A DNA stretch of 64,000 nucleotides from Eledone cirrhosa (taxonomy: Eukaryota): assembly GCA_964016885.1 (NCBI GenBank), contig OZ024742.1:133672001-133736000 (forward strand). The letters are read 5' to 3'. The translations under genes and the position numbers were made by a program. A model generated the notes under the pieces. It searched no databases. It saw only the letters and a list, made by a program, of their open reading frames with translations, and had not been told where the DNA came from. Every line of letters starts with the position of its first letter. The stretch's first letter is position 1. Shown here piece after piece: positions 43,211 to 51,080 of the stretch.

Positions 43211-44495
43211 ATATCAGGTCACCAGTTGGTGCTACTGGTAACATATATCCCAGTACAACCTGTCTCATAATCGCGTCGTTTGCGACTAAACTGGCAACCC
43301 CACCAAGGTTTCTTGGTGAGGAGGGTGACTGTGGACATCCTGCTGGACTAAAAACAAAACCTGTCAAAGGGCAAAGGAGCTCTTAAGAGTCAATGGCCAT
43401 CCAAAATCACCGGGAGAGATGACCCCTTAGTCTTTGTCAAGGAAGAATTCTAGTAGAAGGAAAACTCTGATATAACACCTGCATGTTGACTTGTTCTTCT
43501 TTTTGGTAAATATCATCTTGGTTAAGAGAGTGGGACTGACTTTGTGCAGTGCCTCCGCTCACTATAAAAGCTTCACGACACAGGCATTGCTTTATATCTG
43601 GAGATCTCTTTGCACTTGTCATTACATGGTACCATGGGCCGAACACCATGTGTCAGTAATTGTGACAAGTATAGTGTTTGTACCAGAGTTTTTAAGTTGC
43701 TGGCTGGTCTAAAAAGTCACACTCGTACAGCGCATCGGTAGGGGTTCTCCTACATGGATATATATATATATATATATATATATTCGTTGTGACCATTCTT
43801 CTCTCTCCTTCAATCTCCCTATTTCGTTATCTTCTACTCTCACCCCTCTTTCTTCCACTCCTTTTCTCCCTATCTACTCTTACCCCCACTTTCTTCCTTC
43901 CCCTTTCTCCCTCTCACTTTCACCCCCTCGCCTGACCCTTTAGCAGTTCTCTTCTAACTTACAACTGCGGCGATCAGACGTGTGTCTTTTTTTTTCTCGA
44001 CCACACAGTCTTGAACTTAAGTTCTCTTATCGAGTGGTCTTCGATTTCCCTATCTTAAATTGCTTGCACATTGCTGTTTTGTTTTACTGTTTTCTCCTTT
44101 CTTCCCTTTTGCTTTCCTTCCTTCCCTCCTCCGTTTTCCCAATAACTTATCCAGTTATTGACGCCCTAGAGTGAGATATCTTGTCTTTAAAGCGTATAAA
44201 TATCCGAGACTCCCAGTAGATAACTGATGTGGAACCCCCCCCCCCCCCCATTCTTGCGTTCTTCTTATTCCCACTGCATTTTAAGTCATATATATATATA
44301 TATATAAATTCAGCGAGAATCGTATTTCGGCGGGGAGAAATAAGCGAAACGCAATTTCCGATTTGTGTTGGCAAGCGCTCCATGGACCAAAAGAGACCAG
44401 AAAAATAAACATATGTTATGAAGGCCATATGTTTGTCCTTGGTTCAATCGGGATTAACCACAGTAAGTAAGGTACTCAATACAAAGCAGAGTATA

Positions 44496-44718
44496 AATAT
44501 TTAATATAGAAAAGGTTTCTATAGGACTAGAACTGTTTCATTCGGGAGCAATAATCAGGAAGCCGACTGTTCAAGTAATAAGGTGGTATCTATATATTTT
44601 CTGGACCGTCTTCTACCCCAAGAAAATATATAAATCTACCACACTTCTTGGACTGTTGACTTCCTGAAAATTTGTCCCGAATAAAACAGTTCTAGTCCTG
44701 TAGAAGCCTTTTCTATAT

Positions 44719-46703: not shown

Positions 46704-47566
46704 GTGTGAGTATACGTGTGTGCGAGTGTGTATGTGTATATCTTGCATACATGAGTGTGAGTCCATGTGCCCATACCCATGTGTATGTATGTGTATGTAT
46801 ATATGTAAAACACCTTCTACATCGCCTCTCACCTTCCTCCCATCTCTGTCGTTTGCCACCCCCACCGATACTCCCCCACTCTCCATAGTCGTGTCCGCAT
46901 GCGCGCATGCACATACATGTGTGTACATATACATATGGCTGTGTGAGCGTATGCCGATATGTGTGGGCAAGGATGTGCGTATGTGTTTTATGTTGTGTGT
47001 GTTTATACAACAATATATGTGCACATATATACATATATGTGTGTACGTATACATATATACAAGGTATCTGTCAGACGAAGAGCGTATAACTATGTATCTA
47101 TGTAAGGACCTGACGCCACCAATACATCCACCACACCACCACAAACTCCGCTACCATAGACAAAGGCACCACTACCACACCCCCACTACACGCCAACCCG
47201 TCTACTGACAATCTACTAACCTCATACCACAGCCCATCCCACTAAATAACCTTAACCACCACCATATCATCACATCCACCCCCACATACTCTACACGCCA
47301 AGGCCAACCCACCACCACCACACCCCAGCCCACCTCATCCACAGACCGTCACCACATCTCATCTCACCATCACCATCACCCCCATATACACTACAGGCCA
47401 GTACATCGCCTTGATCCTTCTCACCAATCAAAACATCTCATTTTATCAAACTATTGAAACTCTGACTTTAACACATAGCATGTATTTCATTTTCTTATAG
47501 CATTTTAAGAGGGTCCGTCGAGCTGCCGATTATTGAGTCGGGTAGGATCGATATAGATCGAACCTT

Positions 47567-47600
47567 GAGCTGATGAGTGGCGAAACGCGCGTCACCTATC
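47567..47600 (+). ncRNA. Minimal hammerhead-like motif at the end of a probable PLE 3' region
   Basis: CTGATGA-gtggc-GAAA-cgcgcg-TC followed by AATAAA; palindromic stem III, but stem I does not pair adjacent to the core. Confidence 0.5.
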
Positions 47601-47750
47601 AATAAATGCAATGAAGGAATAATCAATCGTCCTTTTTATCCTTTCTATATATATATAATTATATATATATATATATGTATGTATGTCTGTATGTCTGTAT
47701 GTCTGTATGTATGTATGTATGTATGTATGTATGTATATATATATATATAT

Positions 47751-48555
47751 GTATGATACATTTTATTACTAATTATATCTAAATGTTTCTTCTCTCTTCA
47801 TAATGTATTTTTAACTCTGATACTGGTTCAGTCTAGTTCAAACTGAATTGGTCTGTCCCAGTCATTCATTGAGCAACATCGGTGAAGTTGGCACCCTTAA
47901 CTCACAGTTGGGTGCGGATGCATTCATGTATATATGTGTGTGTCCGCATGTATCTGTGTGTTTCTAAATATATTAATAACTCCCTCTGGTCGAGCAATCT
48001 TTGAAGTGTGGGGACAACTGGAAAGCTTCCATTACTCATACTTCTCGCCTTCTTCACTACCTCTTCTGCGGCCTCGATATGAATACCCCCTCCGCCTCCG
48101 TGGTATTTTCTTCGTGGTTATAAGAGGCTTAGCTCTGTTTCTCGACCGTTATATCGCGTGACTATCTCCCCCTCCGCCTTTTGGGATTCTTTCTCACGTC
48201 GTGTAGACGCGTTCTTGAGACTAGTAAAATGAGGTATCCTCTTGATAAGTCGGCAGACCTCGCAAGGACTCTATATCTTTGATATATTGTTTTTGTTTAT
48301 GCCACGAAACTACGTAGTCGAGGAATTTAGGAACAGTTTAGGTATGATACATTTTATTACTAATTATATCTAAATGTTTCTTCTCTCTTCATAATGTATT
48401 TTTAACTCTGATACTGGTTCAGTCTAGTTCAAACTGAATTGGTCTGTCCCAGTCATTCATTGAGCAACATCGGTGAAGTTGGCACCCTTAACTCACAGTT
48501 GGGTGCGGATGCATTCATGTATATATGTGTGTGTCCGCATGTATCTGTGTGTTTC

Positions 48556-48564
<9 letters not shown>
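47751..48564 (+). mobile_element. Non-coding, terminally redundant HHR element (591-bp period; retrozyme or solo-pLTR-like)
   Basis: 47751-47973 is repeated apparently identically at 48342-48564; flanked by (TA)n both sides; HHR at 48237-48324. Confidence 0.8.
48237..48324 (+). ncRNA. Type I hammerhead, U3:A8 core variant, extended stem II
   Basis: tcctc-TTGATAA-gt(c)ggca...tgccac-GAAA-ctacgtag-TC-gagga: perfect 5-bp stem I, palindromic stem III ACTACGTAGT, GUC site after 48319. Confidence 0.85.
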
Positions 48565-48600
<36 letters not shown>

Positions 48601-48736
48601 GTTATTCCGGGTTGAATCGGAGGTAACCACAGTAAGTAAGGTACTCAATACATTGCAGAGTATAAAAGTTTTAATATATATGAGATTCTACAGGACTAGA
48701 ACTGTTTCATTCTTTAGAAATCATCATGAATCTCAG

Positions 48737-48796
<60 letters not shown>

Positions 48797-48797
<1 letters not shown>

Positions 48798-49447
48798 ATG
48801 GACACGGCTTCGGTAGTTTACTTGCTCACTCAATAATCTAATTAAGTTCGTATTATTAAAATTCGAACCTATCCATAGACATACCTACATACACAAACAC
48901 ATTTTGAGTGGCCCCTGTTTAAAGAAGGCTCCCATAATTATCTGTAGACATCAAATACCCGAATAAACGATCGTCCACGACGTTCGCGAGACAAGTATGG
49001 TCCCTCAAGGACACAGGCGTGGAAAACTCCATCCAAAGGAATGATATTACTAAGTCAAAGCCATACGGAAATGGGAATCGTTCTTGTCAGCTGTAAGACA
49101 TAATCAATATCCCGAGAGGAATACGTAATAGCGCTTGTGTAAATTCAAGGAATGAAATTTTTTGGGGGTTTCCATACGTCTGGAAACACCTATTACGTAA
49201 TTACAAAGCTGCAGATTGACTAGCATGAACAATCTATAATATTCTGGACTGAATAACATGACAGTTGTCTCCCTGATCGATCTATCGTGGATTTATTTCC
49301 CCTTTAAGAAGTGACTGTTTCTGCCCATGCGTCTACGTACGATTGTTTTTCATTTTCCCTACAACCTCATTTAAACCGAGCTGATGATGGGAATAAGGGG
49401 AAACAATTGTTATCAGTAACAGTGAACTAACTGTTGTGGAACTACTT

Positions 49448-49450
<3 letters not shown>
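48797..49450 (+). mobile_element. Short Naiad-like PLE 3' fragment (GIY-YIG C-terminus + decayed HHR at 49377-49415)
   Basis: Translates NKRSSTTFARQVWSLKDTGVENSIQ..SKPYGNGNRSCQL..NSRNEIF; cgag-CTGATGA...GAAA-caattg-TT. Confidence 0.7.
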
Positions 49451-49506
<56 letters not shown>

Positions 49507-49510
<4 letters not shown>

Positions 49511-51080
49511 AAAAAATAGGAAGAAACTTTATGAATTTTTAATAAGTTTAAACCTTTCGATCACGATTGATAGAAATGATAGAGCGGTCAACTTTTTAGA
49601 TGTGACTTTGGACTTGGTCACTAATAGTTATAAACCCTTCCATAAGCCAAATGAAATACTCTCTTATGTTAATCCCAATTCTAACCACCCCAAATCTATG
49701 ATTAGCTCTATAATTAACGGTGTATCTGATAGAATTTCCACACTCTCTAGGGATATAGGAATATTTAATTCACATGCAGAGTACTATAATAATGCCCTAG
49801 CTAACTCTGGTTACTCTGGTAAAATACGTTATAATGACAACAACCTTAGAAAGTCTCCGTTTACCCATAATAATAATAACGTAATTTCCCATAATATGGC
49901 CATGAATGGGAGTAAAAAGCATAAGAATCGTAGAAATCCCATAGGGGTTACCGAACCCATCCATAGGTTAAGCTACCGTAATCGTAATAGTGAGTCTAAT
50001 GGTACACTTTTCGGGATTAGTTCTAGGGAACAAGTTAGGCACTCTGATCGCTCACCCAGTGGTAATGTTTTTACTAATTCTAATAGTGTTGTTTCAACTG
50101 ATCCTGGTAGTAACCCTAATCCTATTGATATGATTCCAGATAACAGTAGATATACTAAAGGTAGAAACAGGAGACTCAATAGGGTTTTGGCTGCTTCTAG
50201 TAATGTTGTTTCAACTAGTCCTCGTAGTAGCCCTGATCCTATTAGTGGGATACTGGATAACGGTAGAGTTCGTAAGGATAGAAATAGGAGGAGACTCAAT
50301 ACTTATTTTAACCCGCCTTATGATCATGAAGTATTAACTAACTTCCCTAGGTTTTTCTTTTCTATCTTAGAGAAAAATTTCCCTCCTACTAATAAATACC
50401 ATGGTATTTTTAATAAAAATGTAATTAAACTATCATTCTCTACCACCCCTAATATTAGTTCTCATTTAACTAGCACTAACAATAAGAAAATTAGGGACAG
50501 CTACTCCTCTTTGTGTACTACTAGTCTTGATAGATCCATTAATGCCTTACCACCTGAGCAGACCCTATCTTATAATAACCCTAGAAGTGATGCATCACTT
50601 ATTCAGCCGGTAAATAGCACCAGAAAGTGTAACTGTAGAGTAAGTATTAACTGCCCTTTAAATGGTCACTGCCTCTCTAGGAACATTGTTTATGCTTGTG
50701 AAGTTAAGACTGATTCTTCTAATAGCACGTATATAGGCTCCACATCAAATACTTTTAAAACTAGGTTTAATTCTCATATCTCTAATTTTAAGCATGTTAA
50801 GTTTAAGAACTCTACTTCTTTAGCACGCCATATCTGGGATCTTAAAGGGGCAGGCATGCCATATAACCTTAATTGGCGTATAGTAGCACGCTCTAATAAC
50901 CTATCAACACACACTAAATTCTGTAATCTCTGTATCCTAGAGACCCACTCTATAATTTTCTCTAGGGAAGTTTTGCTTAATATAAAGTCTGAGATATTTT
51001 CTTCCTCCCCCCATGCCATTTCTAATTCTTTCTTCTATTATAGACCTAAAAGTTCTGGTAGTTTAAATCGTATCCATTAG
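49507..51080 (+). CDS. Truncated but uninterrupted PLE ORF: RT motif E/thumb, low-complexity insert, Cys cluster, GIY-YIG endonuclease
   Basis: VNFLDVTLD, YKPFHKPN..YVNPNSNHP, RISTLS, YYNNALANSGY, YFNPPY, IFNKNVIKLSFSTTPN, KCNCRVSINCPLNGHCLSRNIVY..YIGSTSNTFKTRFNSH, STSLARHIWDLK, CNLCILE. The track's start at 49434 runs through a microsatellite and is not real. Confidence 0.9.

Follow-up and report, generated by a model that had tools for sequence, protein, structure and literature searches.

A 64,000-nucleotide stretch of the genome of Eledone cirrhosa (assembly GCA_964016885.1, contig OZ024742.1, positions 133,672,001 to 133,736,000 of the forward strand; hereafter the window) contains an 814-bp element that comprises 1.38 copies of a 591-bp unit. 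The two ends of the element form a direct redundancy of 223 bp at an offset of 591 bp. An original prediction made from the sequence had described about 1.4 units with an apparently identical redundancy, and the identity of the two copies is exact. The flanks are microsatellites, as also had been described: (TATG)n/(TA)n borders the element on the left and (AT)n on the right, where a 41-bp tract covers positions 48559-48599 at the right end of the element. Around the closed unit there is no meaningful open reading frame (ORF), as the longest Met-initiated frame is 75 aa and stops occur in all six frames at 7-15 per turn. An endless ORF around a circle (591 = 3 x 197) was ruled out by these stops and by the existence of subfamilies of 593 and 595 nt. 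A reading of the 223-bp repeat as a long terminal repeat (LTR) was ruled out since the redundancy lacks a hammerhead and differs in length from copy to copy. An organization with LTR, primer binding site (PBS) along with a polypurine tract (PPT) was not seen in the family to which the element belongs, in which no tool-based search aimed at PBS or PPT was made. The features of the element are collected in Table 1.

Table 1. Coordinates of the retrozyme copy and its features in the window.
Feature	Position	Strand	Evidence or remark
One-armed, 5′-truncated insertion of the 591-bp non-LTR retrozyme family, with long-type 3′ end	47751..48564	+	
223-bp redundancy, copy 1 (unit positions 1-223); putative stop of complementary DNA (cDNA) synthesis after 1.38 turns	47751..47973	+	
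223-bp redundancy, copy 2	48342..48564	+	Exact identity to 47751-47973
Left target flank, (TA)n/(TATG)n microsatellite	47646..47750		
Right target flank, (TA)n microsatellite	48565..48599		
Predicted type I hammerhead, U3-A8 core, ~57-nt bulged stem II, 10-nt palindromic stem III	48237..48324	+	
Predicted self-cleavage/re-ligation site GUC/G, unit 569/570	48319..48320	+	Hammerhead consensus; 0/384 genomic crossings with indel
Short family 3′ end, unit 58 (also 47808); putative reverse transcription start site 1, unused by the window copy	48395..48399	+	2,468 exact junctions into TA
Long family 3′ end, unit 223; putative reverse transcription start site 2, used by the window copy; TA microhomology to target	48557..48564	+	1,045 exact junctions into TA
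Tail of 165 nt separating the short from the long family 3′ end, with long predicted hairpins	48400..48564	+	
Splice-donor-like motif AG/GTATGA at 48341/48342	48334..48347	+	X6 contig junction

When the window was scanned on both strands with a descriptor, one type I hammerhead motif was located in the element, which agrees with the single complete ribozyme described originally. The motif consists of stem I (48237-48241 with 48320-48324), the core TTGATAA (48242-48248), stem II (48249-48305), GAAA (48306-48309) and stem III (48309-48318), and its core has U3-A8 in place of C3-G8. The predicted cut after C48319 falls 22 nt ahead of the second 223-bp repeat. The active hammerhead fold (-21.5 kcal/mol) lies 1.1 kcal/mol above the local minimum (-22.6 kcal/mol), and self-pairing of the palindromic stem III is valued at -12.9 kcal/mol. 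Rfam at the gathering threshold gave no hits in the window and still missed the hammerhead of the element at E-values up to 5; the microRNA-family matches that appeared at a relaxed threshold were microsatellite noise. The core is nearly invariant, as 367 sampled copies together had seven changes at those core positions that were checked, and self-cleavage of the family transcript is predicted from the motif and its conservation. U3-A8 is a natural covariation in the hammerheads of Cercyon, a Penelope-like element (PLE) of Schistosoma (PMC4209133), and palindromic helix III has been described as permitting cleavage in multimers, not in monomeric circles (PMC4209133, PMC3088659). Within the predicted circular fold, the short start site (48395-48405) pairs with the GAAA/stem III strand (48306-48318) across the ligation junction, an arrangement which, if the model holds, could keep the ribozyme off in the circle.

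The host assembly (G000) is 3.0 Gb in length and rich in microsatellites. A search of the assembly with the unit, in which 40 of 825 candidates were scored, recovered copies of 99-100% identity on many contigs in head-to-tail arrays, and exact pattern counts gave 5,244 matches for the hammerhead and 5,920 for the core plus stem II. The element therefore is neither single-copy nor an assembly duplication, outcomes against which the original prediction had been hedged, and 13 other units identical to that of the window on nine other contigs rule out chance or a local duplication in the assembly. Public runs X2, X3 and X6 also contain the unit, with the same TA junctions in X3 and X6. Arrays range from two to at least 14 units with a hammerhead in each unit; the largest, at L234, has at least 14 near-identical 595-nt units over two arms. 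Older subfamilies (82-95% identity) retain the hammerhead and the same 3′ ends. The haplotype of the window copy recurs unchanged on other contigs and the two halves of its redundancy do not differ, so the insertion is recent. Both this claim and that of a retrozyme-like nature are supported by the family data. The window copy has one hammerhead, where Li et al. ask for at least two in an active copy, and many other family loci have at least two. With its single hammerhead the window copy cannot release a unit-length monomer and so is a daughter copy. Overall, the element is a real and recent member of a new, young, protein-free and multicopy family of non-LTR retrozymes. Two near-identical two-armed insertions lie 2,554 bp apart at L109, which probably reflects a local segmental duplication.

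Ends and haplotypes were analyzed in 177 merged regions. These derived from the unit search (30 loci), from multi-unit arrays that were chosen for the purpose (20) and from sites selected by their ends, all on contig C1, where 90 of the 100 long-end sites that came first in the list and 62 of the corresponding 100 short-end sites were included. This selection biases the frequencies of ends in the sample; partner arms, 5′ ends and haplotypes were unselected. Among 293 arms, 283 ended at unit positions 52-64 or 223-231, most loci having been picked by one end, and 276 of those 283 3′ flanks were TA. Reversed-pattern controls for the TA junction counts in Table 1 gave zero. Arms joined head-to-head formed 107 pairs, of which 99 combined a long with a short end, none combined two long or two short ends, and eight had one other end. 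The 5′ ends were scattered around the unit. Arms averaged ~700 nt and reached at most 4,100 nt in the sample, and their lengths showed no cliff at one full unit. The length of the redundancy varies among family copies. Circular permutation with different start points, which the original prediction had put forward for examination, thus is not random: only the 5′ ends vary, whereas the 3′ ends are fixed at unit 58 and 223. Target site duplications (TSDs) are unreadable in the TA tracts. The family data support the proposal that copying proceeded more than once around the 591-nt unit.

The family follows the insertion grammar of PLEs: truncation at the 5′ end, tandems that are partial, an inverted partner, a tail confined to one end and targets of the (TA)n type (PMC8557442). 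In vitro, the protein of the anole PLE cleaves both strands of AT-rich DNA and extends them, and it initiates reverse transcription within the RNA at two sites between which the tail lies (PMC11167929). A PLE reverse transcriptase/endonuclease likely is borrowed for insertion of the retrozyme into (TA)n. A pile-up of 5′ ends also was noted at unit 153-158 (window 47903-47908; 14 compared with 2.9 expected, the best of all 6-nt windows). These ends belong mostly to long-type arms of just 60-80 nt, a hairpin is predicted there, and the position may be a stall site for the reverse transcriptase. At the one-armed copies L007, L026 and L144, a short perfect inverted repeat of the host flank, centered on a TA run, precedes the 5′ junction.

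The haplotypes point to one template per insertion. Comparison of 172 full units showed an average of 1.2 substitutions between units within an insertion (150 pairs) compared to 9.1 between insertions (14,556 pairs), and units in opposite arms of the same insertion likewise differed by 1.2 substitutions (47 pairs). At 16 polymorphic sites in 78 insertions, the arms disagreed in 5 of 611 comparisons, whereas the value between insertions was 29.8%. The triple A>G change 85G+91G+92G is present in the whole assembly only at L101, where it is carried by seven copies across both arms.

The state of this template was addressed by the passage of cDNA over the predicted cut, by the spectrum of variants and by the predicted fold. 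In ~390 cDNA passes over the cut, six 5′ ends fell at unit 566-571 compared to 3.3 expected (p 0.12), and none of the 384 junction crossings carried an indel. With neither a significant excess of 5′ ends nor indels at the cut, a cut linear RNA is not the usual template. Variants were divided by whether all units of an insertion had them (array-wide) or only some units did. On the ribozyme strand, A>G accounted for 33 of 99 array-wide sites compared to 19 of 214 others (p 3e-7) in an unpolarized count. Polarization against 12 older monomers under five filters preserved the excess in all five, with 16/42 compared to 4/108 in the strictest set (p 3e-7). A>G exceeded T>C (16 compared to 7, p 0.004), and C>T showed none of the parallel rise that simple selection for wobble pairs would predict. 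ADAR enzymes avoid a 5′ G and favor a 3′ G next to the edited adenosine. At the A>G sites of the youngest subfamily, 5′ G was depleted (p 0.01) and 3′ G enriched (p 0.005), and this ADAR-like neighbor bias was significant in the unfiltered set and in two of the five filters. Changes made at the RNA level and repeated in every unit require that a monomer was copied many times. The sense circular fold (-174.0) was more stable than those of 40 shuffled sequences (-132.6 +/- 8.0; 0/40 as low, z -5.2), the antisense value was -126.8, and 98.4% of alignment cells were compatible with the circular fold. Closed contigs of 621 nt (X1) and 620 nt (X5) self-close at 591 and 590 nt, respectively, at a depth of ~8, and other repeats of the window region are scarce in both. 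A circle and an array are indistinguishable in such contigs, which were not used as evidence.

Taken together, these patterns are best explained by the copying of a monomeric RNA circle in rolling-circle fashion, an explanation that we judge probable. Of the two options named in the original prediction, a circle fits better than a linear tandem transcript. A more specific proposal is favored only narrowly: each insertion would record one RNA circle as DNA; two rolling-circle reverse transcriptions would be started on the same circular monomer by a PLE dimer, at sites 165 nt apart, from both strands of a cut TA tract; and adenosine-to-inosine (A-to-I) edits would be fixed in every unit and inherited by later generations of the element. 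Under the probable rolling-circle explanation, arrays with two or more hammerheads would be transcribed and would self-cleave, probably as dimers via the palindromic stem III. The monomers would be ligated into tightly folding circles, sometimes edited A-to-I by ADAR. The PLE protein, probably a dimer, would nick both strands of the TA tract, and reverse transcription would be primed inside the RNA at unit 223, unit 58 or both. Each reverse transcriptase then would circle the same template until it falls off, after a mean of ~700 nt. Where cDNA is made from both strands, the products would meet 5′-to-5′ as a palindrome, and where it is made from one strand a one-armed copy like that of the window would result. 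For the window copy, the reverse transcriptase likely ran 1.38 times around a 591-nt RNA circle into the (TA)n tract.

A number of observations weigh against this interpretation. The units of an insertion are not always uniform: at L092 the same two private variants occur in the second unit of both arms, and at L095 staggered variants resemble the duplication of one unit. To account for such arrays, either conversion, duplication on a local scale or a template of multimeric form is required. A haplotype could also look locus-private if its source array is absent from the assembly. The ADAR neighbor bias was non-significant in the three strictest filters (15-17 sites; p 0.09-0.35), the apparent A>G sites 156, 267, 534 and 583 are ancestral G, and part of the A>G excess could come from selection that turns A-U pairs into G-U wobble pairs. 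A long-term A>G ratchet is not supported, as old and young subfamilies differ by 16 A>G and 14 T>C with no clear net drift. Covariation in the circular fold is weak (3/171 pairs), with a score not above shuffles. Hammerhead cleavage is dispensable in vitro for the anole PLE, and uncut linear RNA is the main substrate (PMC11167929). Among the two PLE families examined of at least seven seen, none shared sequence with the unit. Finally, the evidence comes from DNA, and circular RNA, cleavage and editing were not directly observed.

The same PLE enzyme and the same two start sites might act instead on a long uncut linear transcript of a tandem array, which would make the circle unnecessary. This model, which has been proposed for the anole PLE, is supported by the in vitro behavior described above (PMC11167929), and just one of nine Xenopus retrozyme dimers was cleaved in vitro (bioRxiv 10.64898/2026.07.22.740005). 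It likewise predicts haplotypes shared between arms and no pile-up at the cut site, and the matching second-unit variants of L092 fit it. However, edits and errors on a long transcript would scatter among units, whereas A>G is enriched array-wide and not in unit-private variants. New haplotypes that are uniform over 7-14 units (L101, L234) would need a monomer bottleneck followed by re-multimerization, and 5′ truncation alone would make arrays shrink in every generation. The near invariance of the hammerhead core also speaks against a template that is never cut, and we consider this alternative unlikely. A monomer bottleneck and array-wide edits are explained as well by a ribozyme-cut linear monomer on which the reverse transcriptase jumps repeatedly from the 5′ end to its own 3′ end and so mimics a circle. 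The 5′ ends show a slight, non-significant excess at unit 567-570 (5 compared to 2.2, p 0.07) that this alternative would anticipate, but more than 98% of passes continue through the site and the 384 crossings are free of indels. The reverse transcriptase of R2 usually adds or loses bases in end-to-end jumps and switches molecules, and jumps of that kind would mix haplotypes within arrays. Such template jumping therefore appears quite improbable.

Repetition at the DNA level, whether by slippage, unequal crossing-over or rolling-circle copying of extrachromosomal DNA, would dispense with the RNA template. Units would then have been made alike through gene conversion, and the hammerhead would be left over from a PLE pseudo-LTR. 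The staggered variants of L095 show that some local duplication or conversion does occur, and Li et al. propose local tandem amplification following PLE insertion (bioRxiv 10.64898/2026.07.22.740005). A DNA-level origin leaves unexplained the two fixed 3′ ends, the strict pairing of long with short arms, the thousands of dispersed insertions, the strand-specific A>G changes and the folding stability of one strand. This origin is the most remote of the three alternatives, having been refuted largely by the end and strand data, and copying of a monomeric circle remains the preferred explanation.

An autonomous PLE with the 3′ end of the retrozyme, for which the original prediction had suggested a search, was not found in the two families examined. 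At window positions 49431-51080 lies a 5′-truncated PLE frame (reverse transcriptase C-terminus plus GIY-YIG) that begins in a TA tract. Its family has frames of ~900 aa elsewhere, and a search for it gave 67,208 candidates. Pfam returned a sub-threshold GIY-YIG match on the neighboring ORF and nothing on a 911-aa frame. This family (L111-L120, L201-L208) was rejected as the partner as it has a different hammerhead and shares just 25-nt low-complexity/microsatellite matches with the unit. A second young coding PLE family (L266-L277), with 95-97% protein identity and many 713-aa frames, has two 3′ ends ~90 nt apart into TA-rich sequence at 10 of 11 among the loci listed (six short, four long). 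This family was rejected also, as it shares no sequence with the unit; having the same type of ends without shared sequence, it is a control for the insertion grammar rather than an identified partner. Hammerheads that combine U3-A8 with a shorter stem II were sought by pattern, with no matches in the genome. The flanks of one-armed copies held no common PLE sequence, and no sampled copy ran into PLE coding sequence.

The unit also includes a splice-donor-like motif (Table 1). In one contig of run X6, the unit ends precisely at 48341 and is continued by exon-like sequence that is found once in G000, where it directly follows a pyrimidine-rich AG and precedes a 379-aa frame (L222:5859-6364; L221:1501 onward, G000 C22) that resembles a glycosyltransferase. 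A sense copy of the family lies 3.6 kb upstream of the joined sequence. This one contig suggests that X6 is an RNA run and that a host gene uses a 5′ splice site donated by a retrozyme copy. The window copy starts exactly at the splice-donor G, but a special role of this start was rejected: the position shows no cluster of 5′ ends, and microhomology is available from the TATG flank.

Other motifs and repeats occur in the neighborhood. A second, minimal hammerhead at 47564-47603 (Rfam Hammerhead_1, 21.6 bits, E 0.045), on the same strand as the element, belongs to a different abundant repeat just to the left. Another hammerhead-like motif with an 8-bp stem I is located on the minus strand at 21729-21681. 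Another very abundant short repeat lies between TA tracts, with two related copies in the window at 48600-48738 and 44441-44561, one of which sits inside an inverted repeat with 93-nt arms.

PLEs and animal retrozymes may copy either a circular or a linear tandem template, and linear RNA was the template in the sole in vitro study of a PLE (PMC11167929). The question can be tested in a very young family such as this one, given its thousands of copies, the two start sites mapped in it and its A>G marks that are specific to single molecules. If correct, the proposal that each insertion records one RNA circle would supply genome-scale evidence for the circular template proposed for retrozymes and PLEs, and RNA edits would be written back into germline DNA so that RNA editing becomes heritable sequence. 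Moreover, the splice-donor-like motif of the unit appears able to join host exons.

Compared with known systems, the family resembles plant LTR retrozymes in being non-autonomous and hammerhead-bearing with terminal direct repeats, and their circular RNA intermediate is of similar size. However, plant elements have type III hammerheads in both LTRs, PBS and PPT, 4-bp TSDs and dependence on Gypsy machinery, whereas the type I hammerhead here lies outside a redundancy of variable length. With PLEs the family shares two alternative 3′ ends downstream of the hammerhead, a one-ended tail, an inverted 5′-truncated partner and AT/(TA)n targets (PMC11167929; PMC8557442; PMC4209133), and non-autonomous head-to-tail derivatives of PLEs are known in Chlamydomonas (MRC1). 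It differs from PLEs in that the unit lacks the reverse transcriptase plus GIY-YIG ORF that autonomous PLEs carry between pseudo-LTRs, in a tail of 165 nt compared with 30-40 nt, in arms of up to seven or more whole units, and in having no sequence link to a coding PLE among those examined.

The closest parallels are with animal non-LTR retrozymes, which likewise are non-coding tandem units with one type I hammerhead each, a GC content below 50% and no LTR, PBS or PPT seen (PMC7229834; bioRxiv 10.64898/2026.07.22.740005). Thousands of copies, a predicted circle that is highly self-paired and coexistence with PLEs also are shared. At 591-595 nt, the unit exceeds the 150-450 bp stated for invertebrate retrozymes and falls within the 51-972 bp of Li et al., and the U3-A8 core and very long stem II differ from the animal retrozymes described. 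The two fixed 3′ ends, the head-to-head long and short arms, (TA)n targeting and array-wide A>G changes are undescribed for animal retrozymes in the available portions of the same two reports. In the wider literature, surveyed by titles and abstract openings, no paper was seen on retrozyme insertions with two arms, on marks of editing in arrays of retrozymes or on retrozymes of cephalopods; supplementary figures may bear on this. Circular RNA has been shown for the retrozymes of coral, mussel and axolotl, whereas the present family is known from its DNA. A circular template was proposed for PLEs and retrozymes in 2014 (PMC4209133) and 2020 (PMC7229834), and the copying of such a circle into tandem cDNA by a PLE reverse transcriptase, as envisaged here for the Eledone family, has been put forward by the authors of the retrozyme studies themselves (PMC7229834; bioRxiv 10.64898/2026.07.22.740005).
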